The notes: generated by a model not told the origin, from the sequence alone. A stretch of 64,000 bases of DNA from an uncultured Alphaproteobacteria bacterium (GCA_902550225.1 CACCYL010000002.1:13539-77538), one strand, 5' to 3'. Shown: positions 14,304 through 40,656, counted from the stretch's first letter. Translations and numbers: made by a program.

Positions 14304-14927
14304 TTGGGAAAATTTATTGAAAAATATAAATTAGAAAATCCTAGCTTTAGCTTTGAGTTAAATGAGCTAATTCAAAAAATTAAGTCTGAGAATAATCAAG
14401 AAACAGAAGATTTGTTTTCTACAATTAACTCACTTAGAGAAAAATTAGATCAATCTATTTTTGAAAAAAATACTGCAGTACAAAAAGCTATTTCATTAAA
14501 AAATGATGAAATAAACCAGTTAAAAACTTCTGTAAAAGAACTTAGAAATCAAATGGAGAAGCTAAGATTTGAAAAAAGAGAAGCAATTCAAATTCAAATT
14601 CAGGCTTCAGCTAATGAAATAAAACAACTTAAGTTGTCTTGTTCCGCATTAAGAGAAGAGCTTGAAAATTTAAAGTTCGAAAAACAAGAAGCTGTACAAA
14701 ATGCGATAAAGAAATCTTCACTTGAAATTAGCGAATTAAAAGATGCAACTTCTGCTTTAAGAGACGAATTAGTTGAATCAAAGTTTTCAAAAAAACAAGC
14801 AATTCAAAAAGCGGTTTTAAATTCCAGTGATGAAATTAAACAACTTAAAAATTCAACACAATCACTTAGAGACGAATTAGAAAAAGTAATAAAAAATTAT
14901 GAAAAAAAAATCCAAAAAAAACAATAA
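14304..14927 (+). CDS. Coiled-coil protein with about 4.3 x 36-aa repeats
   Basis: Recurring LRxELxxxxFEKxxAVQxAxxxxxxEIxQLK unit; TTG start; 8 bp upstream of the cyclase. Confidence 0.8.
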   Translation: MGKFIEKYKLENPSFSFELNELIQKIKSENNQETEDLFSTINSLREKLDQSIFEKNTAVQKAISLKNDEINQLKTSVKELRNQMEKLRFEKREAIQIQIQASANEIKQLKLSCSALREELENLKFEKQEAVQNAIKKSSLEISELKDATSALRDELVESKFSKKQAIQKAVLNSSDEIKQLKNSTQSLRDELEKVIKNYEKKIQKKQ

Positions 14928-14935
14928 GTTAAAAA

Positions 14936-17242
14936 ATGAAAAACGGTAACGAAAACATAGTCCAAACCTTGGAGAAGCTAAGAAGAACCGAGCTCTTACT
15001 TCAGATATCTAGAAAAATTGCTGGACTTAAATCCTTAGAGGAGATTTTGTGGACACTTATAGAATTCGTTACTAATGAGTTAGATGCAGATAGAGGAACA
15101 TTATTTTTAAATGATAACGAAACTAATGAACTTTATTCAAGAGTTGCTCAAGGGGACTTGACTCGCGAAATAAGAATTTTAAATAACGTGGGAATTGCAG
15201 GTGCAATTTTTCAAAACAAGTCTGGGGAAGTCATTCATGACGTTTATGCCGATTCCCGTTTTAACAAAGAAGTTGATCAGGAAACAGGTTATAAGACAAA
15301 AAATATGATTTGTTGTCCAGTTAAAACTGTTGACGGACTGACGATAGGCGTTATTCAAGTTTTAAATAAAAGAAAGGGAAGATTTACAAAAGATAATCTT
15401 TTCTTTGCAGAGTCAATTGCTACCCAAGCCGCTGTATCAATTCAAAATGCGCAAAATACGGAACATTTTGAAAAAAAAAGAGCTAAAGAAATGGAGTTTA
15501 TAAGTATTGTTTCTGATGTCACAGCTGAAATCGATTTAGGAGCTTTGCTGCAAAGAGTGATGGAGGAGGCAACACGAATGCTCAATGCTGACAGGGCTAC
15601 ATTATTTTTAAATGATGAAAAAACCAATGAATTATTTTCAAGGGTAGCTATGGGGGAAGGCATTGGTGAGATAAGACTTCCTAACACTGCAGGAATTGCA
15701 GGATCAGTTTTTACTTCTGGTAAATCAATGAATATTCCCTATGCCTATGCTGATTTAAGATTTAATCCTTCATTTGATAAACAGACAGGGTATTTTACTC
15801 GTTCGATTTTGTGTGTACCTGTTGTAAATAAAGAGGGTAAGGTAATTGGTTGTACACAAGTTTTAAATAAGAGTGGTGGCAAGTTTACAGATGAAGATGA
15901 ATCTAGGTTAAAGGCATTTACTCAACAAGTTGCAATTGCTCTTGAAAATGCCAAGCTTTTTGAAGATGTATCTAAATCTAGAAAGTATAACGAAAGTATG
16001 CTTTCTAGTATGTCTAACGGAGTTATAACAATCAATAGTGAAGAAGAAATTGTTACTTGCAACAAATCTGGCTTAAAAATACTGCGAACTAAAGATTTAG
16101 ATATAATAAAAAAGCAATCCAAAGATTTTTTTTCTGGAAATAAAAAATGGATATATGAGAAAATTAAGAGTGTTGGTGAATCAAAAGAACCAGAAATTAT
16201 TGTTGACGCTGAAATAGAGGTTTTCGACAATGAAACAGAAAAAGAAGAAAAAATATCAGTAAATTTGACAATACTTCCACTGATAAATGAAGATAGTGAT
16301 GGAAGAACAGATCAATCAGACAATTTTCTTGGCACTTTATTGATGTTTGAAGATATTTCTTCAGAAAAAAGAATGAAATCAACAATGTCTAGATACATGG
16401 ATCCTGGAATAGCAGATCAATTATTAGAGGATGGATCAGACATCATGGGAGGGCTAGAAACAACCGCAACGTTGTTGTTTTCTGATTTAAGAAGTTTTAC
16501 TACCATTACAGAGTCGTTGGGTGCTCAGGGTACTGTAAAATTATTAAATGAATATTTTGAAATAATGGTTGAATGCATATCAGAGCAGGGGGGTATGTTA
16601 GACAAATTTATTGGAGATGCAATTATGGCGGCATTTGGTCTTCCAATATCACATGAAGATGACGAAGATAGGGGTGTTAAAGCTGGTATCAATATGATCA
16701 AAAGATTATGGGAGTGGAACGAGCAAAGAGAAAAAGACGGCAAACCTCCTGTTGATATGGGATTAGGATTAAATACGGACAAAATTGTGGCAGGAAATAT
16801 CGGATCACAAAAAAGAATGGATTACACGATGATCGGTGACGGTGTGAATTTAGCAGCGCGTTTAGAAAGTGCATGCAAACAATATAGTGCAAGAATTTTA
16901 ATTAGTGACTATACATTTAAAAAACTAAAAGGAACTTATCGCATTAGGTATATTGATGATGTTGTTGTTAAAGGAAAAAACGAACCTATTGGTGTTCATG
17001 AAGTTTTAGATTATCACACTGATAAAACTTTTCCGAATTTAATGGATGTTGTAAATCATTTTAATGAAGGTAGAAAACATTATAAAAGTGGAAGTTTTGA
17101 AAAAGCTATTTCATCTTTTAATGAATGTCTTAAATCAAATTCTCAAGATAACTTATCAAAAACATACATTGAGAGATGCAATTTGTTAATAGAGGAGAAA
17201 CCAACTGATTGGAACGGTGTTTGGGTAATGAAAAGCAAATGA
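14936..17242 (+). CDS. GAF-GAF-PAS class III adenylate cyclase (CyaB1-like architecture)
   Basis: Two GAF repeats (DADRGTLFL and NADRATLFL; NKxxGxF), PAS-like MSNGVI segment, catalytic FSDLRSFT, DKFIGDA, YTMIGDGVNLAARLE, TPR-like tail. Confidence 0.93.
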   Translation: MKNGNENIVQTLEKLRRTELLLQISRKIAGLKSLEEILWTLIEFVTNELDADRGTLFLNDNETNELYSRVAQGDLTREIRILNNVGIAGAIFQNKSGEVIHDVYADSRFNKEVDQETGYKTKNMICCPVKTVDGLTIGVIQVLNKRKGRFTKDNLFFAESIATQAAVSIQNAQNTEHFEKKRAKEMEFISIVSDVTAEIDLGALLQRVMEEATRMLNADRATLFLNDEKTNELFSRVAMGEGIGEIRLPNTAGIAGSVFTSGKSMNIPYAYADLRFNPSFDKQTGYFTRSILCVPVVNKEGKVIGCTQVLNKSGGKFTDEDESRLKAFTQQVAIALENAKLFEDVSKSRKYNESMLSSMSNGVITINSEEEIVTCNKSGLKILRTKDLDIIKKQSKDFFSGNKKWIYEKIKSVGESKEPEIIVDAEIEVFDNETEKEEKISVNLTILPLINEDSDGRTDQSDNFLGTLLMFEDISSEKRMKSTMSRYMDPGIADQLLEDGSDIMGGLETTATLLFSDLRSFTTITESLGAQGTVKLLNEYFEIMVECISEQGGMLDKFIGDAIMAAFGLPISHEDDEDRGVKAGINMIKRLWEWNEQREKDGKPPVDMGLGLNTDKIVAGNIGSQKRMDYTMIGDGVNLAARLESACKQYSARILISDYTFKKLKGTYRIRYIDDVVVKGKNEPIGVHEVLDYHTDKTFPNLMDVVNHFNEGRKHYKSGSFEKAISSFNECLKSNSQDNLSKTYIERCNLLIEEKPTDWNGVWVMKSK

Positions 17243-17961
17243 GGAATTTTCCATTAGACAAGGGTTTACCAAGTGTAGATTATATAGTTAAGAACTGGCC
17301 TAACACAAAATGTATTTTAAAAAAATATATTTTGTCAAATCATAAACAACCCAATTTATACTCGATAGCTATAATATGTTTGAAAGAGTTAAAAGTTTTT
17401 AAGTTAAAAGACTATAAATCAATTATTAGAAAATTATCAAAATTATGTTTAAGAAATACTTGTTTCAATACATATCATGATTCTCATCACTTTAAGTCAG
17501 TTTTGGTAATTTCATGCATATTAGGAAAACAATTAAATTTAAAATATAAGGATAGGCTTTTATTGGTCATAATAGCCCTTACTCACGATATGAATCATCA
17601 GGGTAGGAGGATACTTATTAGCAAACCATACTATCAGGAATTAAAAAGCTATGCCGGATTAGAAAAAATTTTATTCAAAAAAATCTTTGTTTTTAAAGAA
17701 TTGAAAAGGATTAAGAAAATATTTGAGAGTACCTTTTTCCCCGTTAAACCAGAAAATGTAGTAGATGATCTTGAGAAAATAATTTTAGATGCTGATATAT
17801 TATCATCCCTAATGTTTGGTCCGCAAGTTGGAGTGAAACTCGCTAGAAGACTGAAACAAGAAATTAGGTATAATGATGACTCTGAACTACTTTTTTCAAA
17901 TTTTCTTAAACTTTTAGGGGGAAAATGTTTATATCTAGATTATTCAAAAAAATCATGTTAA
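17239..17961 (+). CDS. HD-domain protein with class I cyclic-nucleotide phosphodiesterase-like motifs
   Basis: YHDSHH, ALTHDMNHQG, ILDADI; ATGA overlap with the cyclase stop. Confidence 0.7.
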   Translation: MRNFPLDKGLPSVDYIVKNWPNTKCILKKYILSNHKQPNLYSIAIICLKELKVFKLKDYKSIIRKLSKLCLRNTCFNTYHDSHHFKSVLVISCILGKQLNLKYKDRLLLVIIALTHDMNHQGRRILISKPYYQELKSYAGLEKILFKKIFVFKELKRIKKIFESTFFPVKPENVVDDLEKIILDADILSSLMFGPQVGVKLARRLKQEIRYNDDSELLFSNFLKLLGGKCLYLDYSKKSC

Positions 17962-18006
17962 TAATAAACTATTATGAAACGTTGTCGTTAAAAGTTATTC
18001 ACAGTT

Positions 18007-19344
18007 ATGAAATTGTGGATAAGTAGTAATATGGGAAAATTTTTAATAGGGTTTGTATTTTTGATGTGTGCTGGATCACTTGTATCAGCACAAGAAGTAA
18101 AAGATGAGGTTATACCTTATAATCTAAAAGCTGCACTTAAGTCAGTTTTGAATAATCATAAGACAATATTGGCAACAAAAAGTGATATAGAGGCTGCCAA
18201 GTTAAGACTAAAACAATCCAGGGGTGGCTATTTTCCTTCGTTAGATGTTACAGCCAACTACGGACATGAAAATATCATAAAATATGGACCAGGAAACAAC
18301 ACACAATTGATGGGAAGGGACGCAACAGCAAAAATAACTCAAACAATTACAGATTTTGGTTTAACAAAATCAACAGTAGAAACATCTAGATTATCATTAA
18401 AACAAACACGAGCAACTGAAACACAAATTAAAAATGACATTTTATTAAGAGCAATCTCAGCATACTTGAGAATAATTCAATCAAGGGAAAGTGTGCGGTT
18501 CGCAAGACAATCTGTTGCAAACATAAAAAAACAAACCGAACTCGAAGATGCAGCAGTAACTGCTGGAGGTGGACTTACTTCGGATGTTCTCCAAGCAAAA
18601 ACTCAATTAGCTGGTGCTCAGGCACGTTTAATTCAGTTTGAAGGTGTGTTAGCCACTTCTAGACATGAATTTGAATATGTTTTTAATTCATTTCCAGATA
18701 ATTTAAATTCTTTGGTACTCCTCAAATCTGTTTTTGATAAATTACCTAAATCTCTAGAAGAGGCTGAAGAAATAACTATGAAAAATAATCCTTCACTGAT
18801 TGCAGCACGAATCACAGAGGATATCGGTAAAGAAGCAATAAACACAGCTAAATCTTCTCTTTTTCCAACTGTTAAAGGGATAGTGAGTCATTCAGAAAAA
18901 CAAGATTTTGGTGGTGTAGTAGGATTCAAAAGAGAAACCTCTGCAAAGTTAGACTTTGCATATCCATTAAATCTAAGTCTTTCGGAATATGCTGGTAAAG
19001 ATGCGGCGATTGAGTCTTATTTAGCAACCTCTACTAGAATAAGAGATCAAGAGGATATGATTAAACAAATGCTCAGGACTACATGGGACGGTTTAAAAAC
19101 AGCTCAACAAAATTTTCAGTTTCTTACTAATCAGGCAAGAATCTCTGGTGAATTTTTAGAGCTTGCAAGACAAGAAAGAAAAGCAGGAAATCGAACTTTA
19201 CTTGACGTTTTAGGTGGTGAGACTGCTCTAATTAATGCCCAAGCCGATGCAATTGCAGCACAAATTGAAGTTCTCATAAATAGTTACACTTTAATGAGTT
19301 TAATGGGGGGACTTTCAATTGAATCGATTGAATTTGTTGAATAA
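18007..19344 (+). CDS. TolC family outer-membrane channel
   Basis: Signal peptide, YFPSLDV, RTLLDVL, two-repeat OEP architecture. Confidence 0.92.
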   Translation: MKLWISSNMGKFLIGFVFLMCAGSLVSAQEVKDEVIPYNLKAALKSVLNNHKTILATKSDIEAAKLRLKQSRGGYFPSLDVTANYGHENIIKYGPGNNTQLMGRDATAKITQTITDFGLTKSTVETSRLSLKQTRATETQIKNDILLRAISAYLRIIQSRESVRFARQSVANIKKQTELEDAAVTAGGGLTSDVLQAKTQLAGAQARLIQFEGVLATSRHEFEYVFNSFPDNLNSLVLLKSVFDKLPKSLEEAEEITMKNNPSLIAARITEDIGKEAINTAKSSLFPTVKGIVSHSEKQDFGGVVGFKRETSAKLDFAYPLNLSLSEYAGKDAAIESYLATSTRIRDQEDMIKQMLRTTWDGLKTAQQNFQFLTNQARISGEFLELARQERKAGNRTLLDVLGGETALINAQADAIAAQIEVLINSYTLMSLMGGLSIESIEFVE

Positions 19345-19345
19345 A

Positions 19346-19400: not shown

Positions 19401-22400
19401 ATGAAAGGAAATAGTCAACAAATAAATTTCAACGACAGTGGGTTTTTAACTAAAATATATGCTGGCAGCACCATTGACATTGAAGGATTGCCAAGTTGGT
19501 TACCAAAGGCAAATTTTTCAAAAACGCAAACAGACCTTCTGATAACTTCACCAGCTGGCGATGAAATATTATTAGTAGATTTTTTTACAAATTTTGAACT
19601 TCCCTCACTCAAAACCGAAAATGGTTTATTACTTAAAGGCACTTTAATTGATACTTTATCTGGATCATTCACACCTGGACAGTACGCGCAAGCCAATAAT
19701 GCAAATGCACTTTCGATTGGAGAGGTTTCTAGTGTTACGGGAGAGGCAAAAGCAACTCGTTTGGACGGATCAACTGTTAATCTTGCAACTGGAGATCCAG
19801 TTTTTCAAGGAGATACTGTAGAAACTACTGGGGCAGGGGCAATTGGATTAGTATTTCTTGATAAAACAACTCTCTCATTATCGGAGGGTGGAAAAATGGT
19901 TTTAGATGAACTTGTATATGACCCTGCAACAGGAACTGGAAGTATGGCCGTTGACATGGTTGAGGGAGCTTTCAGTTTTGTGAGTGGCGAGATTGCTAAA
20001 ACTGGGCCAGATGCAATGAAAGTTTCAACACCGGTTGCAACTATTGGGATAAGAGGAACTACGGTTGCAGGTAAAGCTGCAGTTGAAGGCAACGAAAACT
20101 CATTTACACTTCTACAAGACGCTGATGGAGGAGTAGGACAAATATCTGTGAGTAATGCCGGTGGAACTCAAGTTCTAGCACAGGTTGGTGCGACCACGAG
20201 TATAACGAGTTTTACAGCTCCACCCCCACCCCCAATTATTTTAAGTGCAGCACAAATTCAAGCAAATTATGGAACAGCTTTAAATGTTTTACCACCAACG
20301 CCTGTGGTTGCTCCAACACCACAACCACCCCCACCGCCTCAAGAACAACAACAGGAGCAAGTTCAAGAAGAGGAGTCTCAAGAGGAAGAAGAGGCAGTAG
20401 AAGAGGAGGCTGTTGAAGAGGAATTACAAGAGGAGGGAGAAGGTCCTCCAGAAGGAGAGGAGGGAGAAGGTCCTCCAGAGGGTGAAGAAGGAGAAGGTCC
20501 TCCAGAAGGAGAAGGTCCTCCAGAAGGAGAAGAGGGCCCGCCGATTGGACCTGATGGAGAACCGTTAGCAGAAGAAGGACCTCCCGAAGGAGACGGCCCG
20601 CCGATTGGACCTGATGGAGAGCCATTAGCAGAAGGAGAAGGCGGTCCACCAATAGGACCTGATGGAGAACCCTTACCACCTGGAGAAGGCGGTCCGCCGA
20701 TTGGACCCGATGGAGAGCCACTAGCTGACGGTCCACCAATAGGACCTGATGGAGAACCCTTACCGCCTGGAGATTTTGGTCCTGGAGGCCCGCCGATTGG
20801 ACCCGATGGAGAGCCACTAGCTGACGGCCCACCAATAGGACCTGACGGAGAACCCCTGCCACCTGGAGATTTTGGTCCTGGTGGTCCTACACCTGAACAA
20901 GACGCAGCTGCAAGAGAGGCTTTTGAAACTGCATTGGCCGCCGGTTTATCTCCTGAAGAAGCAATGGCAGAAGCCGCTGCTGCTGCTGGAATTCCTCCAC
21001 CACCAGGAGGGTTCGGAGGAGATCCTTTGTCAGCAACAGTTGGAGGTGATGAGTTTGCAGGAGGTCCTCTTGGTCCAGGCGGTCCAGGAGATTTTGGTCC
21101 GGGAGGTCCAGGAGACTTTGGTCCTGGTGGTCCAGGAGACTTTGGTCCGGGAGGTCCAGGAGATTTTGGTCCTGGTGGTCCAGGAGACTTTGGTCCTGGT
21201 GGCCCAGGAGACTTTGGTCCGGGTGACCCTGATGATTTTGGTTTTGGAGGTCCAGGAGATTTTGGTCCAGGAGGCCCAGGAGATTTTGGTCCTGGTGGTC
21301 CAGGTGGATTCGGTGATCCACTTTCATTTTTAGGACCCGCTCCTGATAATGCCGCAACTTTTGCGCCTCTAGGTGGTCCAATGGATCCTAATGATCCATT
21401 TGCTGCTTTCGGGGGGAATGCTTTTGGTGATAGCCCAATTGGTTTGCCAGGTGGTCCAGGCGGTCCTGGTGGTCCAGGAGACTTCGGTCCGGGAGGTCCC
21501 GGTGGTCCAGGAGACTTCGGTCCGGGAGGTCCTGGTGGTCCAGGAGATTTTGGACCAGGTGGAGGACCTGGAAATTTCGATTCTGGCTCGGGCGGTGATC
21601 AAGGGTCCTTTGGAACTTTTCTTCCACCAGGTTCTTTTCAACCACCTGGTACTGTTCAACAGCCAGGTGCTTATATCCCAGCTCAAGTAGGTTTTGCTCC
21701 AATTGCACCTGTTACAACAGCTCCCGTAATTGGTTCGGGTTTTTCAGCCAATGATGGTGGTGGTTTTCACGGAGGTCCTGGTGGACCTGCAGGTTTTGAT
21801 CCAGGTGGGGGTCCCGGTGATTTTGGTCCAGGTGGTCCAGGTGGTCCCGGTGATTTTGGTCCGGGAGGTCCAGGAGACTTTGGTCCAGGAGGCCCTGGTG
21901 GCTTTAGTCCAGCTGGCTTTGGTGCTGATGGCTTTGGTCCAGGAGGCTTTGGTCCTGCAGGCTTTGGTCCTGCAGGCTTTGGTCCTGGAGGCTTTGGTCC
22001 AGGAGGTTTCGGTCCTACGGGTTTTGGTCCTGGAGGCTTTGGTCCAGGAGGTTTTGGTCCTGCAGGTTTTGGTCCTGCAGGCTTCGGTCCTGCAGGCTTT
22101 GATCCATATGGTCCTGATCCAAGCGGTGGAGTGCCTGCTGGAGATTTTTATTATGAAGATGCAAGTATGTATGAGAATACTGGAGAAGCAGAAGGTTCTG
22201 AATCTGGAAGCGGAAGTGGAGGTGGAAGTAGTGGGACTACATTCATAGGATCAAATAATGTTGATAACGTTGATAAATCTGCGGAATCCGTCGCATGGCG
22301 TTTTGAAGGTTATAGCGGGGCAGATATTTTCAAGGGTGGGTCTGGTGATGATATCTTTTGGGGAGCAATTGATGGTGATACTTTAACTGGTAATGCTGGG

Positions 22401-28536: not shown

Positions 28537-28537
28537 A

Positions 28538-28837: not shown

Positions 28838-28839
28838 AT

Positions 28840-29196: not shown

Positions 29197-29208
29197 AATT
29201 TTTTCCTT

Positions 29209-31866: not shown

Positions 31867-34242
31867 TTATTTAGAGGTTGCGACAAAAACACCATCCCAA
31901 TCTTTTGGGGGAGGATACTTTTTAAATTCATTAATTCTTTCTGTCATCATTTCATAGTAATCTTTCATTAAATTTTTACAAAGTGTTTTTGCCTGAGTCA
32001 TTTCCTCGACAGCATCTTTCCAATTTTGATTAAAATAATGATTTAATACATTTTTATGCTTTTTTTCAAGATTTTTGAAATCAACACTATTTTTAAAACT
32101 TGGATCACCAAGTAAACAAAAAATTGATACAGCTTCTTTTTTTCCTTTTACTGCTAGCATATCAAGTTGGAGTGTAGCAAAAGTATCTTTAACAGCATCG
32201 TTTGTTTCTTGCCCAATAACTGTTTTAACTCCATAACCTTTTGATTGACCTTCAAGACGTGATGCTAGATTTACTGCGTCTCCCAGTACTGAATAGTCAA
32301 ACCTTTGATCCGATCCCATATTTCCAACAACACAACCTCCGGTATTTAGTCCAATTCCAATTTTTAATTCCAAAAAATCTTTATTTTCTGACTTCGCTTC
32401 TTGCTCTCTGATATCGTTAAGTTCTTTTAGTGCTTTATGCATACTTAATGCTGCTTCACAAGAAACTTGCTCATGTTTATCAACATCTATAGGTGCATTC
32501 CAAAAAGCCATAATACAATCTCCCATATATTTATCGATTGTTCCGTTTTTATTTATGATTTCATTAGTAAGAGGTGTTAAAAATCTATTTATAAGTTTTG
32601 TTAGGCCTTGAGGATCTGATTTAAAAGCTTCTGAAATTGTTGTAAATCCTCTTACATCACAAAAAAGAAATGTCATTTTTTTTGTTTCTCCACCCAAAAC
32701 TAATTTATCAGGATCTTCAGCTAATTGTTCCACTAAAGCGGGAGATAGATATTGAGAAAATGCACCCCTTATTTGTTTTTTCTCATTGGCATCACGTAAA
32801 TAGTTTGCAAAGGTGTTACTAAAATAAATTACAAAAGTTGTTACACCTGCAAAGGTTGGATCAAATAAAGTTTTATGTTCAGTAAATAATCTTACACTAA
32901 TATAAAATGCTGAACTTATTATGGTTACAAGTGATGAAATATTTACAATTGGACCAAACTTTAATGCAGATACTGTGATAAATAATGCAAGCAAAATTGT
33001 AAAGAGTGCTTCATAAAATTTCATATTTGCACCAGATTTCAAAAAAGGTGATCCTGAAATTTTAACTTTGTTTTTTTCAATTATTGCTTCTTCTTCACTT
33101 AAACCTTTTTTTAATGCATCTTTATAAACTTTTTCAGAATTTTTTGTGGAAGTATAATAAAGAATTGCTGAAATGACTGTATCAATGAGATTTGCATGAA
33201 TTTCGACACCTGGCATTCTTTCATCGACTGGAGTGGGTCTAATATCCTTTAACCCAGTGGCCGATGTGCCTAATATACCAAGTTTTCCTTGTAATCTATC
33301 TTTGCCGACCCTTCCTTTAATTATATCCACTGCACTTACATAATACCTTGATTTGCCTTCTTTAACTTTTCCAGCATCTGAATCACCATAATAAATCCAC
33401 ACTCTACCATTCTCATCAGTCGGAATAGCAGCATTACCAATAGCTTTAGTTTGAATTATTATTTCTTTAATTCCCGTCAAACCTGTCCTAGTGGCAATAC
33501 TATTTCCTTGAAACGCAACCCTTATCATATCAAGCCCAAGAGTTGGTCTGATTTCACCTGCAACATTTGATATTAAAGGTACTCTTCTAATAATACCATC
33601 TGGTTCTTGTGCAACTGAAACTGTACCAGACCCAGAAGCAGCTTTTTCAAACTCTGTCACATTAGCAAGCAATCCAGGATAAGATATCAACCATTCCTTT
33701 GGATTTTTACCTTTGCCAATAAAAACTTTTACAGATGAATCGTTTATATCATTTCTGTTTGCATCACCTTCAATATCTAATCCCGAGTGACCAATTATTA
33801 CAGGGAACTCATTCATAGCTTCCATTGCTAAAAACTCATTAGAGGGAAGTTCACTTAGTAGTTTGGCAATATTTGGGTTTCGTTTTTCTAAATCTTGAGA
33901 AATCAAATCGGGTGAAGTCCTGTCTTTTTCTGCAAATAGAACATCTAGGCCTAAAACGAGCATGCCCGATTCTTTAGATTTTTTAAAAAGATCAGCAAGT
34001 ACAGTTCTTGGCCACGGCCATTGACCAATTTCTCTAAGAGATTTTTCATCAATATCTACTATTACGGAATAAGTTTGACCATCCGTAGACCTTGGGAATT
34101 TTTTTTGAAGAACATCAAAATACTTTAGTCTAAGAACTTCTACTACTTCAGGATCAGCTATACGAACCAAACCAAAAAGAATAGCCATTAATACAGAAGC
34201 AATAGTAACAATTAGTCTAAAACTTAGCTTAAATTTGATCAT
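31867..34242 (-). CDS. CHASE2-domain adenylate cyclase
   Basis: IVDIDEKSL..GQWPWPR, DGIIRRVPL, GVEIHAN, 3 TM segments, FCDVRGFT, DKYMGDC, YSVLGDAVNLASRLE. Confidence 0.95.
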   Translation of the reverse strand: MIKFKLSFRLIVTIASVLMAILFGLVRIADPEVVEVLRLKYFDVLQKKFPRSTDGQTYSVIVDIDEKSLREIGQWPWPRTVLADLFKKSKESGMLVLGLDVLFAEKDRTSPDLISQDLEKRNPNIAKLLSELPSNEFLAMEAMNEFPVIIGHSGLDIEGDANRNDINDSSVKVFIGKGKNPKEWLISYPGLLANVTEFEKAASGSGTVSVAQEPDGIIRRVPLISNVAGEIRPTLGLDMIRVAFQGNSIATRTGLTGIKEIIIQTKAIGNAAIPTDENGRVWIYYGDSDAGKVKEGKSRYYVSAVDIIKGRVGKDRLQGKLGILGTSATGLKDIRPTPVDERMPGVEIHANLIDTVISAILYYTSTKNSEKVYKDALKKGLSEEEAIIEKNKVKISGSPFLKSGANMKFYEALFTILLALFITVSALKFGPIVNISSLVTIISSAFYISVRLFTEHKTLFDPTFAGVTTFVIYFSNTFANYLRDANEKKQIRGAFSQYLSPALVEQLAEDPDKLVLGGETKKMTFLFCDVRGFTTISEAFKSDPQGLTKLINRFLTPLTNEIINKNGTIDKYMGDCIMAFWNAPIDVDKHEQVSCEAALSMHKALKELNDIREQEAKSENKDFLELKIGIGLNTGGCVVGNMGSDQRFDYSVLGDAVNLASRLEGQSKGYGVKTVIGQETNDAVKDTFATLQLDMLAVKGKKEAVSIFCLLGDPSFKNSVDFKNLEKKHKNVLNHYFNQNWKDAVEEMTQAKTLCKNLMKDYYEMMTERINEFKKYPPPKDWDGVFVATSK

Positions 34243-35963
34243 GGTTCTGCAAAACTATTACCGAGGGTTCTTATAAGTGGATAAATAAAATACGTAATTA
34301 ATCTTCTTTGCCCAACTCTAAATTTTCCTGAGACTTTCATTCCTGGCATTAAATTAAATCCTGGAGGAATATCTTTTAACTCATTTTCTGTTATTTGAGC
34401 TCTAGCCCTATAAAAATTTCCAGGTTTTCCATCGACGTCTTTATCAATTGTGTCAGCAGAAACATAAATGAGCTTTCCTTTTAACTCACCGTGTTTTTGT
34501 GCTGGAAGGGCATTGAGTTGAATTTTAACAGATGTATCCGGAATCAGTTTACTAATATCAGAAGGATCAACATCAAAAACAGTTAATAACTCCACACCTG
34601 TTGGTACCAATGTAACAACACTTTTACCTTGTGTTATTACTGCTCCAGGATATAGAGAATGAAGGTCTAGAATCATACCGTCAGAGGGCGCTCTTACTAC
34701 AACATCAGTTTGTTGTCTTTCAAGTTTTTTTACATCTTCTTGTAGCGACATTCTTTGATCCTCTAATCCAACAAGCTCATCGTTTATTCCTCCAAAAAAT
34801 TGACTGTTATATTCTTTTCTATTAGATTTTAATTCGCTTAGTTTATTGCTTGTTTTTGTGAATTCTTTTTCTAAAGATAGTCTTTTGTTTTTCTCAGCTA
34901 AAACTTGTGATTCTGCTACTAGATCAAGTTCAAATAACTCCAACTTTGAATCTTCTAGCTGCTTTTGTATATCAAGTTGTTCCTTTATAAACTTCAAATC
35001 GTCTTCTGTGGAACCTATTTGTTGATCTAAGGAAGCAATCTTTGCTAAATATTGGTCTTTTTTATCTTTGAAGATTCTGCTTTGTCTTTCGTCATTTGGA
35101 TTTGCAACCGAAACATTATTCCTCAACAATGACTGCTTTTTTAGTCTATCAATTTTTGAATTAACAACTGAAAGCTGATAATCAAGTTTCATTTTATCGG
35201 CTCTTTGAAGTGTAGCATCGAATGTTACGAGTGGATCTCCTTGATTGACACTTTCACCTTTTTTAACAAGTATTTCTTTAACAACAGAATTATAGTTTGA
35301 TTGAACCTCTACATTTGGAACAACGGTAGTTATTTTTCCAGAAGCAGAAATTGTAGTATCAATTTCAGAAATAGTGCCCCAACTAATTAAAAATAAAACT
35401 AGGAAACCAAATGAATAAACTGACATTTTAACAGAACGAGGTACCTGTTTTGTTTTAATTCTATCAATGTCGTCATCAAATTCATCTAATAATTCACTCA
35501 TCATTTTTTTCTTTGATCTATTTTCTTTTTCTTCCTCAGTTAAAACCTCTTCTTGATCTTTGTTATTTTCATTTTCATTGCCAGATTCGAAAGCATCTAC
35601 AGATAATTTTTCGTTTGCATTTCTGGCGTAGCTTGCAAGCTGCTGCATCATATTAAAAGCGGTTTGTGGAGAGTTTTTGAGATAGCCTAGTAAAGCATTT
35701 TGATCAATTTCTTTTACCGTTGTCTCAACTGTCGCTCTTGCCATCGCACTTCTTGGTTGTTTGTCAATTAATGCCATTTCTCCAAACAATGCACCTTTTT
35801 CAAGTATTGATAAAGTGACGTATTCGTCACCGTTGAATTTGCATACCTCTATTTTTCCTTTTACTATTTGATAGGCATAGTCTCCAACTTCACCTTCTCT
35901 AAAAAGTACATCACCTGCAGCTAAATTTCTAACAGCCGGTTGTATATTTTTTTTATCAGCCAT
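34239..35963 (-). CDS. HlyD family membrane fusion protein with N-terminal cNMP-binding domain
   Basis: LFREGEVGD...FGEMALIDKQPRSA, then TM, coiled coil, RAPSDG, LMPGM. Confidence 0.92.
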   Translation of the reverse strand: MADKKNIQPAVRNLAAGDVLFREGEVGDYAYQIVKGKIEVCKFNGDEYVTLSILEKGALFGEMALIDKQPRSAMARATVETTVKEIDQNALLGYLKNSPQTAFNMMQQLASYARNANEKLSVDAFESGNENENNKDQEEVLTEEEKENRSKKKMMSELLDEFDDDIDRIKTKQVPRSVKMSVYSFGFLVLFLISWGTISEIDTTISASGKITTVVPNVEVQSNYNSVVKEILVKKGESVNQGDPLVTFDATLQRADKMKLDYQLSVVNSKIDRLKKQSLLRNNVSVANPNDERQSRIFKDKKDQYLAKIASLDQQIGSTEDDLKFIKEQLDIQKQLEDSKLELFELDLVAESQVLAEKNKRLSLEKEFTKTSNKLSELKSNRKEYNSQFFGGINDELVGLEDQRMSLQEDVKKLERQQTDVVVRAPSDGMILDLHSLYPGAVITQGKSVVTLVPTGVELLTVFDVDPSDISKLIPDTSVKIQLNALPAQKHGELKGKLIYVSADTIDKDVDGKPGNFYRARAQITENELKDIPPGFNLMPGMKVSGKFRVGQRRLITYFIYPLIRTLGNSFAEP

Positions 35964-35969
35964 TTTAAT

Positions 35970-38141
35970 TTATCCGGCCTTTTTTAAAGATTTAATTTTG
36001 TTCTCTACGCCTAAAATAGACATTTGCTTATTATACGTTTGACCAAAATAACCTGAAATTTGTCTTAATTCTTCAAAAGAACCCTGTTGAGATATTTTCC
36101 CCTTTTCAAGCACAAAGATTTTGTTACAAAGTCGAAGATGCCAAACCCTGTTTGATACGATAATTATCGTTCTACCAAGTGCAATATCTGATAGTGCATC
36201 GTATAATTTTATTTCACTGTCAACATCAAAACCTGTGAAAGCATCATCAAGTATCATGATACGAGGGTTTCTAATAAGTGCTCTGGCAATTGCTAGTTTT
36301 TGTCTTAAGCCAGTTGCAAGATTTGTGGCATTTTCCTCTAAGAATGTTTCATATCCATCAGGATAAGACTCAATTTCTTCATGTGCGAAAACTTTTTTCG
36401 CAGCCCAAGTTATCCTGTCCATGGAGGAATTTGGCATTGCACTCGCTATTGTTTCTCTTATTGTTCCTGGAAAAAAATAACTATCTGTTCCAACCAATGA
36501 AACCTGTGATCTTACATGACTAAGATCCAGTAAACGTAGATCTATATTATCCAGAGCCACGATACCAGCCTGGGGTCTATATAGACCCTGAATTAGTTTT
36601 GCGATAGTACTTTTTCCACATCCACTTTTACCTGTAATACCAATTATCTGTCTTGGATTAATTTCAATATCAATATCATTTAATACTTTTGTATTATCAT
36701 CGTATCCAAACTCAACATTTTTAAAACTAACTTGTCCCATAAGTTGAGGTTTTTGGCCTCTGACAGTTGTTTCGGAGTTTGCATCCACTATTCCTGATAT
36801 AATCTGAAGAGATTGAACTAATTTTGTTATTTCTGTTTTAAGTGTAACTAGATCAATTATTGGCTTTGATACTCTGCCGGCAAGCATATTAAAACCTACT
36901 AAAATCCCAGCTGAAAGAGATCCAGAAAATACAAGATGCACCCCTACAAAAATAACCATTGCAGTCATAAGTTGATTTATGGTTGATGAAATATTGTTTA
37001 AAACTGCTGACTTTTTTTGCATTTCTTCATTTGCAATAATATAATTTGCTTCCAAATCTCTCCACTGATCTTTCAAATTAGGTTCAAGAGCAAGTCCCTT
37101 AACATTCTCAATTCCGTTAACAGCAACAGAAATAAATTCTTGTCTTTTTGATTCAGCCTTACTTAAACCAGCGAGCGAATCTCTTTGTTTTTTTGAGTAA
37201 AACATTGATGCTAAAGCTCCTAATATACTAAAAGAAAACACAACAATAAATAGTAATGGGCTATAAAAAAATAGAATGGGAACAAAAACAAGTAAACTAA
37301 TTGAGTCCAGTGCTGTTGAGAAAACTTTTTGCGTCAGAAGGCTTTTGATCTGCGATATTTGGCCTGTGAATCTCAAAAAAGTAGCTGATTCTTTATGAAA
37401 CCTTTGCATTGGTAAAGCAATTAATTTTTCAAAAACTTTAACTGAAAGTTTCGCCTCAACCTTTTGTGAGAAAAAATCAAGAAGATATGACTTTAAATAC
37501 CCGAGTATTCCGTTAAATACATAAGCAACAACTACACCTGAAGTTATAACATATAAAGTTGAATAAGCTTCATAGTTTACAACCTTATCCAAAACCAACA
37601 TCATGAAAACAGCTGGTATAACTGCGAAAATGTTTAAAATCAAAGCTACAATTACAACTTGAAACATAACAGACTTGTTTCTAAAGGATTCACCTATTAG
37701 CCATCCAATTTTTAATTCACTGTCTTCTTCAAATTTTTTAAGTTTGGCTTTAAGAAGTATTACTTCTCCGTTCCAGCCTTTTTTTAATTCTTTTAAATTA
37801 ATTTGTTGAGGTTTCGGACTGGTAACACCAGTATCAAGACATAAAATTGACTTATCATCATCTTTTTCACCCTGAATAACTCTTAAAGCTATTATGTATC
37901 TTCCATTTTTAAGTCTTAAGATCTGTTGTTTTTTAGACAAGAGCTTTACTAGTTCCTTCTCGCTAATTTTGGTTGCTTTTGCTTTTAAATCAAAGGATTG
38001 AGCTAAGTCACACATTTCAGAGGTTCTAAGTTCTCTATCCTCAATTTGAAATCTTTCTGGAATATCATTTGGACCAATATGAACACCTAATTGTCTTGCA
38101 ACTAGAATAATTGATTTTTGAGAACCTCGCATCGCTTCCAT
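35970..38141 (-). CDS. T1SS ABC transporter with C39-like domain and degenerate ATPase motifs
   Basis: N-terminal C39-like region ending WNGEVIL with no evident catalytic Cys; Walker A GKSGCGKS; LATGL signature; Walker B IMILDD; IVSNR switch. Confidence 0.9.
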   Translation of the reverse strand: MEAMRGSQKSIILVARQLGVHIGPNDIPERFQIEDRELRTSEMCDLAQSFDLKAKATKISEKELVKLLSKKQQILRLKNGRYIIALRVIQGEKDDDKSILCLDTGVTSPKPQQINLKELKKGWNGEVILLKAKLKKFEEDSELKIGWLIGESFRNKSVMFQVVIVALILNIFAVIPAVFMMLVLDKVVNYEAYSTLYVITSGVVVAYVFNGILGYLKSYLLDFFSQKVEAKLSVKVFEKLIALPMQRFHKESATFLRFTGQISQIKSLLTQKVFSTALDSISLLVFVPILFFYSPLLFIVVFSFSILGALASMFYSKKQRDSLAGLSKAESKRQEFISVAVNGIENVKGLALEPNLKDQWRDLEANYIIANEEMQKKSAVLNNISSTINQLMTAMVIFVGVHLVFSGSLSAGILVGFNMLAGRVSKPIIDLVTLKTEITKLVQSLQIISGIVDANSETTVRGQKPQLMGQVSFKNVEFGYDDNTKVLNDIDIEINPRQIIGITGKSGCGKSTIAKLIQGLYRPQAGIVALDNIDLRLLDLSHVRSQVSLVGTDSYFFPGTIRETIASAMPNSSMDRITWAAKKVFAHEEIESYPDGYETFLEENATNLATGLRQKLAIARALIRNPRIMILDDAFTGFDVDSEIKLYDALSDIALGRTIIIVSNRVWHLRLCNKIFVLEKGKISQQGSFEELRQISGYFGQTYNKQMSILGVENKIKSLKKAG

Positions 38142-38173
38142 GACAATATAATATATTAATTTTTGATTTAATC

Positions 38174-38213
38174 AAAAAAAAAACCCCCTTAGAAACACCA
38201 AGAGGGTTTTTTT
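38174..38213 (-). terminator. Rho-independent terminator of the 38232-39218 gene
   Basis: Minus strand AAACCCTCTTGG-loop-CTAAGGGGGTTT followed by a long U tract. Confidence 0.85.
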
Positions 38214-38231
38214 ATTTATAAAGGTATAGGT

Positions 38232-39218
38232 TTAGACTACCTCACCACCATCATTTGGATCGTCAGGAGGTGGAGGCATATCTGCGGGCATATCACCTGG
38301 CATTGGCCCTGGATCTCCCGGAGGAGGTCCTTCTGGACCTTGATGTGCTCCCGCATCGTCCATGTGTGTATGCATGTCACCCATTCCATCCGGAGGAGGT
38401 GGAGGCATTCCATCGCCGTCCATGTCCATGCCTGGAGGAGGTCCCATTGGATCACCCGGAGGAGGTCCGCCTGGTTCTCCTGGAGGAGGTCCACCAGCTG
38501 GTCCACCTTCACCAAATAATGGATCTGGTCCTTCACCACCTGGAGGTGGTGGAGGCATTCCATCTCCATCCATATCCATGCCTGGAGGAGGTCCATCTGG
38601 TCCCATTCCGCCTGGACCCATATCACCTGGAGGAGGTCCGTCTGGTCCGCCGGCCATATCACCTGGAGGAGGTCCGTCTGGTCCCATTCCGCCTGGACTC
38701 ATATCACCTGGAGGAGGTCCATCTGGTCCCATTCCGCCTGGACCCATATCACCTGGAGGTGGTCCGTCTGGTCCGCCGGCCATATCACCTGGAGGAGGTC
38801 CACCTTCACCTGGAGGAGGTCCATCAGGAGCTCCTGGTAAATCACCAGGAGGCGGAGGTGGAGGAGCATCAGCACCTGGTCCCATGTCAGGAACAGGAGG
38901 CATATCAGGACCAAAATCCGAACATGGTCCGTCAGGACAACCATCTAAATGGGTGTCCATAACATCAGAGACAGCGTCAAAAGCCTCTTCTGCACTTGCA
39001 CCAGGGTTTTCAGCCATAAAATCGTTGTATGCACCTTGAGCTGTGTCAGCCATATTCATCATAACTTCGGGGGGCATACCTCCATCAGTCATAACGTCCA
39101 TTGCTGCAGTCATACATTCGTCAAAACTACCTCCACCTTGCATTACGTCAAACGCAGCAGAGCCTGCAGCGTCGCCGAGATCCATAAGTTCAGGAGGCAG
39201 TGTAGTAAAATCTGCCAT
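38232..39218 (-). CDS. Very acidic Pro/Gly/Asp/Met-rich repeat protein, candidate T1SS cargo
   Basis: AAGGAA RBS at 39225-39230, own terminator, located between tolC and ABC; GPDGPPPGDM repeats. Confidence 0.8.
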   Translation of the reverse strand: MADFTTLPPELMDLGDAAGSAAFDVMQGGGSFDECMTAAMDVMTDGGMPPEVMMNMADTAQGAYNDFMAENPGASAEEAFDAVSDVMDTHLDGCPDGPCSDFGPDMPPVPDMGPGADAPPPPPPGDLPGAPDGPPPGEGGPPPGDMAGGPDGPPPGDMGPGGMGPDGPPPGDMSPGGMGPDGPPPGDMAGGPDGPPPGDMGPGGMGPDGPPPGMDMDGDGMPPPPPGGEGPDPLFGEGGPAGGPPPGEPGGPPPGDPMGPPPGMDMDGDGMPPPPPDGMGDMHTHMDDAGAHQGPEGPPPGDPGPMPGDMPADMPPPPDDPNDGGEVV

Positions 39219-39330
39219 AATAAATTCCTTTATTAAATTGTAAGATTAAATTGTGTTAATACTTTAAAAAGTCGATACAGTCTATTTTAATCATATTTTA
39301 TTTTTCAATTTAAGCAAGCTTTAATTAATT

Positions 39331-40656
39331 TTATTTTTCAATTGTTTCAAAGTTTAAAATTCCGCATAATTTTAATAATTCAAAGGATGAAATAATAAGT
39401 TGATATTGTGCGTTTACTAAATTTGATTCAGAATCTGTTAATTCTTTTTGTGCATCTAGAATTTCCAATGTTGTTCTGGTACCAACACTAGCTTCTTTAG
39501 TTACTCCCTCAACTGCCATTAAATTTGACTCAACTGAAACCTCAAGGGAATCTATACTTGATTTGGAACTTTGTATTTTCTTCCATGCCGAATTAATTTG
39601 AAATTGTAAGTCAAGTTTTTTTGTCTCGATGGATTTAATAACTGAAAGTGCAGAATCTTTTGATTTTTCTAAATTTAACAAATTATGTCCTTTGTTAAAC
39701 AATGGAACCGTAACATTGGCAGTTACTGAGTATGAATCTGTTCTTTCAACTGTCCTTGATGGATCAAGTGATTTTCCTACTGAACCAGACAAAGAAAATT
39801 CTGGTGCAAAATTTAAATTATTTTTTCTTACATCCAATTTTGAGTTTATAAGTTGTAATTTTAATTTTCTATAATCTGGGTTCTTTTCCAAACCTGTTTG
39901 TATTGAATCTTCCAAAGATTTTGGAAGTTTTGGTATTTGCCCAAATTTTAACCAATCTTTTGGATTGGCGTCGACAATTTGGGCATTATTGGAATCAAAC
40001 CATTTGATATCTGGAGCTCTACCGACAATAGTTTTAAAATCAGAAATTGAAATTTCTAAGTTATTTTCAGCTTCTATTCTCTTTGAAGTAGCACCTGCTA
40101 ATCTTGCTTTAGCTTGAAAAACGTCAGTTTTAGTAACGTCTTTAAATTCGAATCGCTTTTCAGCAGCATTTAGTTTTTTTTCAAGAGTTTCTTCGTTCCT
40201 TTTTGAAACATCTAAAAGAAAATAATCCTTTAAGACAGTATAATAAGCTCTACTAGCTTTAAACAAAACATCTTGGACTGTGGCATAAAAGGTTAACTTT
40301 GCGATGTTCAAGTTATTTTTAGCTTGCTTGAAATTTATAGCTTTTGTGTAACCTAGAGGTTGAGATAAATCTACGTCGAACGTAGTTGGGTTGAAAGCGC
40401 TATCATTAATTCTAGATGTATCGGGATTACTTTTTGTAATTTTCCTTCCTTGTGAAGCTGAAAAATCAAGGGATGGAAGAAAATCTGTTTTTGAAATTTT
40501 TAAATCTTTTTCTGAAATTTTTAGTTCAGTTTTACTTTTTTCAATGTCTGGATAAAACTTATATGCATCTTTCAAAACATTGGAGAGTTCTTCAGAAATT
40601 GAAATAACGGGAAAAAATATCAATGCTAAGATAACCAGATTTAATTTGGATTTCAC
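39331..40656 (-). CDS. TolC family outer-membrane channel
   Basis: Signal peptide, FLPSLD, GTRTTLEILDAQ. Confidence 0.92.
   Translation of the reverse strand: MKSKLNLVILALIFFPVISISEELSNVLKDAYKFYPDIEKSKTELKISEKDLKISKTDFLPSLDFSASQGRKITKSNPDTSRINDSAFNPTTFDVDLSQPLGYTKAINFKQAKNNLNIAKLTFYATVQDVLFKASRAYYTVLKDYFLLDVSKRNEETLEKKLNAAEKRFEFKDVTKTDVFQAKARLAGATSKRIEAENNLEISISDFKTIVGRAPDIKWFDSNNAQIVDANPKDWLKFGQIPKLPKSLEDSIQTGLEKNPDYRKLKLQLINSKLDVRKNNLNFAPEFSLSGSVGKSLDPSRTVERTDSYSVTANVTVPLFNKGHNLLNLEKSKDSALSVIKSIETKKLDLQFQINSAWKKIQSSKSSIDSLEVSVESNLMAVEGVTKEASVGTRTTLEILDAQKELTDSESNLVNAQYQLIISSFELLKLCGILNFETIEK

Follow-up and report, generated by a model that had tools for sequence, protein, structure and literature searches.

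A conserved, convergent type I secretion locus with a predicted cyclic AMP circuit in a streamlined marine family of Alphaproteobacteria

INTRODUCTION

Type I secretion is usually seen as unregulated at the machine, and its best-known control by a second messenger, in the Lap system, uses a separate receptor and a protease. Here, we describe a locus in which two convergent type I secretion systems (T1SSs) are encoded together with adenylate cyclases, cyclic nucleoside monophosphate (cNMP)-binding proteins, and an ion transporter-like protein. It occupies positions 14304-40656 of a 64,000-nucleotide stretch from an uncultured Alphaproteobacteria bacterium (GCA_902550225.1, CACCYL010000002.1:13539-77538), which in its full length we call the window. 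Comparative evidence gives good support to the view that the locus is one secretion block wired to cyclic AMP (cAMP), and we consider it on balance probable that this conserved functional block lets cAMP gate type I secretion after translation, by a mechanism whose individual steps we infer from its anatomy and conservation. If so, it would offer a simple example of a secretion machine that a second messenger gates directly and would point to secreted disordered proteins of a new class among seawater bacteria.

The Escherichia coli hemolysin exporter HlyB-HlyD-TolC is a three-part machine in which the cytoplasmic tail of HlyD engages the substrate and triggers TolC recruitment, and the hemolysin operon has a hairpin between its cargo and ATP-binding cassette (ABC) genes. 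The locus described here has the same three parts, with a second ABC protein (ABC2) that aligns to HlyB and two adaptors that both pass the TIGR01843 model, and here, too, a hairpin separates the ABC gene from a cargo gene upstream of it. It differs in that one adaptor has an N-terminal cNMP-binding domain, the likely cargo lacks RTX repeats, and the ABC proteins lack the Walker B glutamate and the H-loop histidine; furthermore, cyclases, cNMP-binding proteins, a transporter, and PII-like genes share what is probably the same operon. The Lap system of Pseudomonas fluorescens consists of a LapA-type retention module, LapBCE, LapD/LapG, and cyclic di-GMP (c-di-GMP). RTX proteins with an N-terminal module like that of the adhesin MpIBP, and second-messenger genes beside a T1SS, recall Lap and MpIBP, but LapG, GGDEF, and EAL were not found in five genomes of the family, the messenger would be cAMP, and its receptor would be fused to the adaptor of the other T1SS.

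The closest precedent, and the sole experimental one that we found for nucleotide control at such a machine, is HetC of Nostoc PCC 7120, an ABC-type exporter that needs a cytoplasmic cyclic nucleotide-binding (CNB)-fold domain (PMC10986499). HetC has its CNB domain on the ABC protein, an active peptidase, and guanosine tetraphosphate (ppGpp) as the ligand found, whereas here the adaptor carries the CNB domain, the ABC protein has a C39-like domain that appears dead, and a cyclase lies in what is likely the same operon; a CNB domain on ABC2, the HetC-type trait, was not detected by Pfam. An earlier reading made from the DNA alone (hereafter, the sequence-only reading) had not recognized the locus as a described system. 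We found no publication that joins cNMP binding, type I secretion, and HlyD. That claim nevertheless needs the reservation that HetC is a studied CNB-bearing exporter.

FecR-domain proteins have also been described in connection with CHASE2 sensors. A FecR-domain protein lies beside a CHASE2 sensor in the BiofilmReg operon of Burkholderia and also in Pseudomonas (PMC5192318), and Sinorhizobium meliloti is described as having both CyaD1, a CHASE2 cyclase, and SMc02177, a FecR-domain target of Clr (PMC5498481). The likeness to our locus is a FecR-type domain adjacent to, or in the regulon of, a CHASE2 sensor, whose output in S. meliloti is also an adenylate cyclase; here, however, the FecR-type module forms the N terminus of RTX proteins, the cyclase is in the T1SS operon, and no CRP/Clr-type regulator was found in the five genomes.

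RESULTS AND DISCUSSION

A convergent block kept across the family

Gene content was taken from the open reading frame (ORF) listing and from Pfam and NCBIfam scans of the window proteins, which together place all 18 genes of the locus where the sequence-only reading had them. The plus arm opens with the gene for a 207-aa coiled-coil protein (g01, 14304-14927, + strand; its coiled-coil Pfam/NCBIfam matches are sub-threshold), and the minus arm opens with a TolC-family outer-membrane channel (TolC2, g18, 39331-40656, - strand; Pfam OEP 190.7 bits; TIGR01844 213 bits, below the cut-off of 225.15). The arms converge and end at 28536 and 28538, with a single base between them, as that reading had also noted.

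Of the 24 other genomes of the family, 22 have an ortholog of the cNMP-HlyD adaptor (g15), full-length or cut by a contig end; none was found in G010 (86% complete) or G012 (79% complete). Gene order was compared by tblastn of all window proteins onto seven genomes (G004, G018, G019, G020, G022, G024, and G041) that represent seven genera, one of them the window's own. As far as the contigs reach, all seven keep the same core order, in which the TolC1 arm converges on PIIb-PIIa-DUF1538-cNMP-CHASE2 cyclase-cNMP-HlyD-ABC2-cargo-TolC2, and G041 has the whole block on a single 704-kb contig. With the adaptor in 22/24 genomes and the core order in seven, the components that the sequence-only reading had joined into one system are thus linked in related genomes. 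Separately, a recent genomic island was considered and ruled out because the block is family-wide.

Around this core, gene content varies. There are one or two FecR/RTX genes per locus, and an ortholog of the small cNMP gene g13 occurs in all seven genomes, with only one small cNMP gene in G019, G024, G022, and G020. The pair of coiled-coil gene and GAF cyclase is present in G004, G014, G021, and G041, and no coiled-coil, GAF-cyclase, or PDE-like gene was found by tblastn in the 12 kb upstream of TolC1 in G024. A second, partly degraded TolC-ABC-HlyD set with a 643-aa CHASE2 cyclase was seen in G019 (L108, G019:C12:8000-20000); this set is repeated on G019:C19, perhaps by duplication or perhaps as an artefact of the assembly.

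The minus arm is tightly packed from the adaptor to its last gene. The pairs g15/g14 and g13/g12 overlap by 4 bp each, and between g14 and g09 the genes are otherwise 2-37 bp apart. This fits a single operon, and we regard one operon for the minus arm as probable. Contigs from seawater RNA libraries (four libraries from four studies, at least 90% likeness) cover parts of this arm and bridge g09-g10-g11 (28606-29754), g14/g15 (34088-34838), and g15/g16 (35740-36011). These contigs represent near-identical sequence in seawater RNA libraries and lend weak support to the operon, a single transcript being unproven and DNA carry-over possible. Their depth peaks over the cargo gene, a low-complexity region in which depth cannot rank genes, and it was not used as evidence of expression. 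At the junction of the arms (28536/28538), no terminator-like site was found; since the convergent ends lie 1 nt apart here, and ~8-15 nt apart by tblastn ends in G004, G018, G019, and G024, the two transcripts may overlap and interfere.

A sensor-bearing adaptor with an HlyB-like exporter and a likely cargo

The adaptor g15 (574 aa, 34239-35963, - strand) matches both cNMP-binding and HlyD families (Pfam cNMP_binding, PF00027, 70.4 bits against a cut-off of 27.5; HlyD_3 56.8 bits; TIGR01843 219.7 bits against 208.65). Its CNB domain (residues ~12-125) is followed by an acidic linker, one transmembrane helix (~180-200), and the periplasmic HlyD part, and the phosphate-binding cassette FGEMALID..PRSA is kept across an alignment of eight sequences. 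Because this domain sits at the substrate-engaging tail of HlyD, binding of cAMP there would be expected to open or close export.

Next to the adaptor lies ABC2 (g16, 723 aa, 35970-38141, - strand), an HlyB-like exporter with a C39-like N-terminal domain (ABC_membrane 113.9, ABC_tran 94.4, and Peptidase_C39 25.3 bits). Its best PDB matches are the HlyB structures 7sgr and 8dck (E = 1.6e-99), aligned over residues 13-693 with the C39-like domain included. No cysteine is found in residues 1-40, which we take to be the site expected for the catalytic cysteine of C39 peptidases, and judged by its sequence this domain is dead, as is the inactive C39-like domain of HlyB.

Fused adaptors of this kind are not confined to the family. 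An exhaustive HMMER search recovered ~40 clusters (50% identity) that match g15 over its full length with 26-39% identity and belong to Alpha- and Gammaproteobacteria and to a few other groups. In a genome scan, such fusions turned up in records titled Magnetococcales, Piscirickettsiaceae, SAR116, Rhodospirillales/Rhodospirillaceae, Pseudomonadales, and others. An HlyB-like ABC gene of the C39-like domain (CLD) type lies directly upstream of the fused adaptor in 21/21 outside loci with upstream sequence. A different arrangement was noted in L049-L058 and L080, from Rhodospirillales-titled records, where two tandem ABC genes are accompanied by HlyD and the cNMP-binding segment comes after the HlyD part.

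The gene that precedes ABC2 encodes an acidic, Met/Pro/Gly/Asp/Ala-rich low-complexity protein of 328 aa (g17, 38232-39218, - strand) with no Pfam or NCBIfam match; its best scores against the protein atlas (0.77 and 0.75) are to unnamed clusters and are uninformative. Orthologs lie at the same place in G004, G018, G019, G024, G041, and the outside locus L035. Those of the family have in common an N-terminal part rich in Ala, Met, and Asp, motifs of the DMDGDG type, and an acidic C terminus with hydrophobic end residues, which in g17 itself reads ...DDPNDGGEVV. A hydrophobic-ended acidic C terminus resembles the C-terminal signals of some T1SS substrates.

To look for such proteins outside the family, we used a composition filter (P+G+D+E+M+A at least 65%, Met at least 5%, D+E at least 12%) whose thresholds were set after the window protein had been seen. 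It was passed by 13 of 502 ORFs of at least 90 aa in 20 loci (297 kb), and all 13 lie at most 2.5 kb upstream of the ABC gene on the same strand, with none elsewhere in those loci. A cargo-like ORF is present in 10 of the 17 loci with enough upstream sequence, and within the 64-kb window g17 alone passes. Since cargo-like ORFs sit only upstream of the ABC partner of the sensor-bearing adaptor, g17 is likely the cargo of the cNMP-HlyD system. By these sequence comparisons, cargo, CLD-type ABC, and cNMP-HlyD together form the widespread core.

Between the cargo and ABC2 genes lies a terminator-like hairpin of 16 pairs followed by a T run (38177-38213, - strand). A hairpin at this place was also found in G018 and G019, with different stem sequences, and thus in three of the four genera checked; it was not found between the two genes in G041.

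Two adenylate cyclases, a PDE-like protein, and small cNMP-binding proteins

Two genes of the locus encode predicted class III adenylate cyclases. On the plus strand, g02 (768 aa, 14936-17242) has a GAF-GAF-PAS-cyclase order with a TPR-like C-terminal tail (Pfam GAF 131 bits, Guanylate_cyc 81.7 bits), and its GAF tandem is closest to the GAF-A/B pair, which binds cAMP, of Anabaena CyaB2 (1ykd, E = 1.3e-45). On the minus strand, g14 (791 aa, 31867-34242; CHASE2 158.8 bits, Guanylate_cyc 71.1 bits) follows the cNMP-HlyD adaptor, whose stop its start overlaps by 4 bp. Aligned to CyaB of Pseudomonas aeruginosa (3r5g; E = 2.2e-33 for g14), g02 has Asp, Lys, Asp, Thr, Asn, and Arg at the CyaB columns, and g14 has Asp, Lys, Asp, Ser, Asn, and Arg. 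We take these columns to be the two metal-binding Asp residues, the substrate-specifying Lys and Thr/Ser/Asp, and the transition-state Asn and Arg of class III cyclases. Both proteins therefore keep the catalytic residues, identical to CyaB except for Ser in place of Thr in g14, in agreement with the sequence-only reading, and by family model and catalytic columns both are class III adenylate cyclases. The order of domains in g02 is that of Anabaena CyaB1 and CyaB2, from which it differs in being translationally coupled to a gene for a phosphodiesterase (PDE)-like protein and in heading a T1SS operon; activation of its GAF domains by cAMP is putative.

The coupled gene, g03, encodes an HD-type PDE-like protein of 240 aa (17239-17961, + strand). 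The longest ORF runs from 17209, but the start is more likely at 17239 because homologs are mostly 239-246 aa long, with 240 aa dominant; from there, the start overlaps the stop codon of g02 as ATGA. Its homologs have invariant H80, H83, H84, H116-D117, H120, and D186, which make up the H..HH and HD..H..G metal-site motifs of class I PDEs (PF00233; RhoPDE 5vyd, PDE5). A profile of 18 homologs matched only class I PDEs among the 78 PDB matches listed at E <= 10 (best E = 1e-4), and the top Foldseek matches listed for an AlphaFold2 (AF2) model (pLDDT 79) are all PDE catalytic domains, with TM-scores (TMq) of ~0.5-0.6. What sets g03 apart from class I PDEs is its length of only 240 aa, these modest TM-scores, and a Pfam PDEase_I score of 13.4 bits against a cut-off of 24.8; given this sub-threshold score, we call it PDE-like and not a family member. 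The PDE-like HD protein of the sequence-only reading thus holds as a resemblance to a compact class I cyclic-nucleotide PDE core, as the profile and fold matches suggest, and its PDE activity is putative.

Downstream of the CHASE2 cyclase, two overlapping genes encode single-domain cNMP-binding proteins, g13 (146 aa, 31411-31851, - strand; 55.6 bits) and g12 (155 aa, 30947-31414, - strand; 65.6 bits). Like the adaptor, both pass the cNMP_binding cut-off and have phosphate-binding cassettes of the form FGE..R(S/T)A, which in g12 reads FGEMAL...NRSA; the Gly-Glu and Arg-Ser-Ala residues are, we assume, typical of true cNMP binders. All three proteins, g15, g12, and g13, carry cNMP-binding domains by family model, with the cassette kept, and are predicted to bind cyclic nucleotides.

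A DUF1538 transporter, two PII-like proteins, and rearranged loci elsewhere

The last three genes of the minus arm encode a membrane protein and two small proteins. The membrane protein g11 (566 aa, 29209-30909, - strand) has two DUF1538 stretches (358.5 bits) and matches NCBIfam UmpA (NF041627, 204.3 bits against 490) and UmpB (NF041628, 177.5 bits against 500), below both equivalog cut-offs, and it appears to be a fused UmpA/UmpB-like transporter. UmpAB of Halomonas zhaodongensis, a DUF1538 pair, has been described as a Na+(Li+,K+)/H+ antiporter (PMC5484666). Both have two DUF1538 halves, which here are fused, score below the equivalog cut-offs, and are followed by PII-fold proteins. Of these, g10 (PIIa, 118 aa, 28840-29196, - strand) passes Pfam P-II (31.1 bits, cut-off 25) and is 82-93% identical across genera, and g09 (PIIb, 99 aa, 28538-28837, - strand) has no Pfam or NCBIfam match. 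An AF2 model of g09 from nine orthologs (pLDDT 82.5) shows a beta-alpha-beta-beta-alpha-beta order, and its best Foldseek match is GlnK/PII (E ~3e-3, TMq ~0.55-0.67), with CutA and DUF3240 also listed. Since BLASTP gave no alignment between g09 and the neighboring g10, g09 is PII-like by fold alone. Both proteins that the sequence-only reading had called PII-like can thus keep this name, one by family model and the other by fold. PII-like proteins regulate transporters, as SbtB does SbtA, and SbtB has been reported to bind cAMP.

Parts of the block are re-associated in other arrangements, as sequence comparison indicates for L035, L043, L062, and the second set of G019 (G019:C12). In the Magnetovibrio-titled L035, PIIb-PIIa-DUF1538 (71% identity) lies beside cargo-ABC-cNMP-HlyD, whose adaptor is only 31% identical, and a nearby protein of >2400 aa has no Pfam match and an N terminus that matches the g05 module by tblastn at 49% identity. 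In L043, the genes upstream of cargo-ABC-cNMP-HlyD encode a GAF cyclase (50% identical), DUF1538, PIIa, PIIb, and another cyclase. In L062, TolC-ABC-HlyD is directly followed by a CHASE2 cyclase that is 33% identical over its full length, alongside a FecR/FG-GAP protein and a cNMP-EAL protein. Two further observations concern these loci. A MotA/ExbB-MotB pair, which may be a proton-motive energy source, lies between cNMP-HlyD and the giant FecR-type gene of L035 (L035:12036-13643), and the cNMP-binding-EAL fusion of L062 (L062:17049-18317) is a possible link from cAMP to c-di-GMP.

Second-messenger genes and the case for cAMP gating

Guanylate_cyc matches lie in this locus in 2/2 cases each for G000, G014 (93% complete), and G021 (99% complete); G011 has two matches, one of which was examined, and G019 has three, all of them CHASE2 cyclases beside T1SS genes. 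In the genus of the window, this locus holds both of the genome's class III cyclases, and the census would mean that, in the searched genomes, cAMP is made only here. Absence searches in the family covered five genomes each, four of them at least 93% complete, with named control genomes positive each time. GGDEF was found in 0/5 genomes (control 8/14), EAL in 0/5, and HTH_Crp_2 above the cut-off in 0/5 (control 14/14). As neither a CRP-type regulator nor c-di-GMP enzymes were found, cAMP appears to act directly on machines and not via transcription. The host family is abundant, marine, and streamlined to small genomes, and here it carries cyclases in a secretion block, with no CRP-type regulator or c-di-GMP enzymes detected in these searches.

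We propose the following circuit. The CHASE2 cyclase would sense a periplasmic cue and make cAMP, and in some genera the CyaB1/2-type GAF-GAF-PAS cyclase would amplify the signal by means of GAF domains that bind cAMP, while the compact PDE-like HD enzyme, coupled to it in translation, would reset the signal. Once bound to the sensor domain of HlyD, cAMP would open or close the export of the acidic cargo, and the small cNMP proteins and the PII-like pair would relay its signal to the DUF1538 ion transporter. On the other side of the block, the plus arm would export, or anchor at the surface, two RTX proteins via modules resembling LapA/MpIBP-type retention modules, and the hairpin between the cargo and ABC2 genes may attenuate. 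Such a locus would be a new form of type I secretion control, and it is neither a Lap system nor a bacteriocin exporter. The sequence-only reading had seen in it a complete cyclic-nucleotide circuit. This stands insofar as synthesis, a PDE-like enzyme, receptors, and two T1SSs are found in one block; it does not in that the GAF cyclase and the coiled-coil protein are not universal and receptors for cAMP also occur outside.

Several observations weigh against cAMP gating of secretion. The main caveat comes from HetC itself, whose essential N-terminal CNB domain bound ppGpp, GTP, and GDP in vitro, whereas it did not bind cAMP (PMC10986499). A cyclase-domain match was found in only 2 of the 22 outside loci with a fused adaptor (L029 and L043), many of whose contigs are short, and a CHASE2 cyclase in 0/22. 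The coiled-coil gene and GAF cyclase are absent at this place in G019, where the PDE-like gene is kept. Of the cNMP-binding domains, five in G000 and six in G014, three in each genome are in the locus; the 2/5 and 3/6 outside it mean that the circuit is not private to secretion. The assignment of g17 as cargo draws on gene position and composition alone. Both ABC proteins lack the catalytic glutamate and the H-loop histidine, which puts the usual pumping in doubt. Close DUF1538 orthologs are rare in the class (5/301 genomes at E <= 1e-60), and in G120 a DUF1538+PIIa pair stands alone, with no T1SS or cyclase within ~19 kb.

Some of these observations, namely the nucleotide preference of HetC, the 2/22 cyclase matches among distant loci, and cNMP receptors outside the locus such as a glutaminase-cNMP fusion that points to metabolism, would also suit a shared operon in which secretion is not gated by cAMP. 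There, cAMP would mainly serve the DUF1538/PII transporter and metabolism, and the CNB domain of HlyD would bind another nucleotide, e.g., ppGpp, or be structural. We consider this, the main rival, unlikely, because the adaptor cassette keeps Gly-Glu and Arg-Ser-Ala, the adaptor stop and the CHASE2 cyclase start share 4 bp in a pair that is kept across the compared genera, and pairs of a T1SS with a CHASE2 cyclase recur elsewhere (L062 and G019:C12).

The cNMP domains outside the locus are small single-domain proteins, to which G014, of the same genus as the window, adds a fusion of glutaminase, STAS, and cNMP-binding domains (612 aa, L105:547-2385, G014:C22). The fusion would be a second, metabolic target of the same messenger; no such protein was seen in G000, which is 63% complete.

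The FecR/RTX arm compared with Lap

The plus arm encodes a second T1SS with its own substrates. Behind TolC1 (g04, 18007-19344, + strand; Pfam OEP 186.3 bits; TIGR01844 190.7 bits, below 225.15) come two FecR+RTX proteins, g05 (1160 aa, 19401-22883, + strand; FecR 28.8 bits) and its paralog g06 (884 aa, 22964-25618, + strand; HemolysinCabind 52.7 bits, FecR 27.7 bits), then ABC1 (g07, 529 aa, 25671-27260, + strand; ABC_tran 80.5 bits), which has no N-terminal accessory domain and matches the NCBIfam T1SS ABC models LssB and PrtD below cut-off, and finally HlyD1 (g08, 423 aa, 27265-28536, + strand; TIGR01843 288.5 bits against 208.65). Pfam and NCBIfam scans found no cNMP domain in the ABC1/HlyD1 pair.

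In g05, an N-terminal FecR-type module is followed by a Glu-rich stretch, a long Pro/Gly/Asp/Phe low-complexity core, weak RTX repeats (18.7 bits, cut-off 23), and a C-terminal domain; g06 shares this N-terminal module, to which it adds an acidic linker and clear RTX nonapeptide repeats. Of the candidate substrates, g06 thus passes the RTX-repeat model with its 52.7 bits, g05 is below the cut-off, and g17 has no such repeats. Residues 101-177 of g05 match PDB 5ix9, from the N-terminal region of the Marinomonas adhesin MpIBP (E = 1.4e-4), which we take to be its LapA-type retention module, and the LapA retention-module model NF033682 gives 23.3 bits for g05 and 23.8 for g06, both below the cut-off of 50. 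The N-terminal FecR-type module is the best-conserved part of these proteins, the ~300 N-terminal residues being 63-78% identical to family homologs, 48% to L035, and 30% to L062; the remainder is variable.

The core of g05 stands out in composition. The window is AT-rich, with ~24-36% GC outside two GC-richer low-complexity coding stretches, and the genome has ~28% GC; a block of 54% GC at 20000-22000, inside g05, encodes Pro/Gly/Asp/Phe repeats of the GPGDFGPGG and GPPIGPDGEPL types, and its composition resembles that of the acidic cargo protein. The assemblies of relatives break inside the g05 ortholog, G014:C9 and G021:C3 both ending there.

The module, with its match to 5ix9, its weak match to NF033682, and its conservation, speaks for a cAMP counterpart of Lap, whose main output would be that cAMP decides whether the FecR/RTX surface proteins are retained or released. 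Further points in its favor are that c-di-GMP enzymes and LapG were not found in the searched genomes and that FecR-domain proteins are known beside CHASE2 sensors (PMC5192318; PMC5498481). We nevertheless hold such a counterpart to be quite unlikely. The LapG protease (PF06035, Peptidase_C93) was found in 0/5 genomes, with Caulobacter as a positive control, and neither a protease nor a LapD-like receptor was identified, the LapD family itself not having been sought; the retention-module score is 23 bits against a cut-off of 50; and the ABC and HlyD of the FecR/RTX arm lack a cNMP domain, the conserved partner of the sensor adaptor being a different protein. The Lap relationship that the sequence-only reading drew is therefore one of analogy and not of membership. 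Its cAMP-controlled adhesin display is at most indirect as well, since the sensor-bearing HlyD belongs to the arm of the Met/Pro/Gly/Asp-rich protein and not to that of the FecR/RTX proteins.

Motif losses in both ABC proteins

Gating of secretion by cAMP, which we favor, has to accommodate unusual nucleotide-binding motifs in the exporters. In HlyB, the Walker B glutamate and the H-loop histidine are needed for hydrolysis. At the columns that we take to be HlyB E631 and H662, ABC2 has a Walker B motif ending in DD, with aspartate for the catalytic glutamate, and asparagine for the H-loop histidine, and its signature reads LATGL instead of LSGGQ; ABC1 also has DD in Walker B and no H-loop histidine. 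These losses are found in all five family genomes compared (in ABC1 of G018, the H-loop column is unaligned), and similar ones occur in the nearest outside loci L027, L029, L030, L045, and L047. More distant ABC partners keep the glutamate and mostly the histidine. ABC exporters without these two residues raise the question of how they work.

Since both ABC proteins lack the two residues, they may be nucleotide-gated conduits and not ATP-burning pumps. A more elaborate device could be built on this, in which the periplasmic FecR-type modules, plugged under TolC1, are the ligand of CHASE2, so that occupancy of the display is reported as cAMP; cAMP would then open the second T1SS, releasing a Met-rich, acidic, metal- or calcium-binding, disordered matrix protein, and would tune the PII-controlled ion flux through DUF1538. 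If true, this feedback would be a mode of type I secretion run by a second messenger and not by ATP hydrolysis, but as a whole we think it very unlikely. Weakest of all, a peptidase-containing ABC transporter (PCAT) of the bacteriocin type, which would remove a double-glycine leader from the Pro/Gly-rich protein, suggested by the Peptidase_C39 match of 25.3 bits and by the weak scores that the cNMP proteins obtain with TIGR03896 ("bacteriocin-type transport-associated protein"), is scarcely credible and was set aside because g16 has no catalytic cysteine, aligns best to HlyB including the C39-like domain, and scores far below the cut-offs of bacteriocin ABC models (TIGR01193, 256.9 against 523.85).

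Neighboring genes

Outside the block, the ORFs at 11642-12823, 13566-13820, 41774-42106, and 42263-43144 have no Pfam family, and a small gene for a PPIC-type peptidyl-prolyl isomerase lies just upstream of the block (12816-13136). The closest neighbors are a DUF192 protein (13801-14283) and, divergent from TolC2, a Sel1-repeat protein (40907-41515, + strand; Pfam Sel1 88.8 bits). Both have hydrophobic N termini and flank the block in several genera as possible further members of the system, and the Sel1-repeat gene adjoins TolC2 in G004, G018, G019, G024, and G041.

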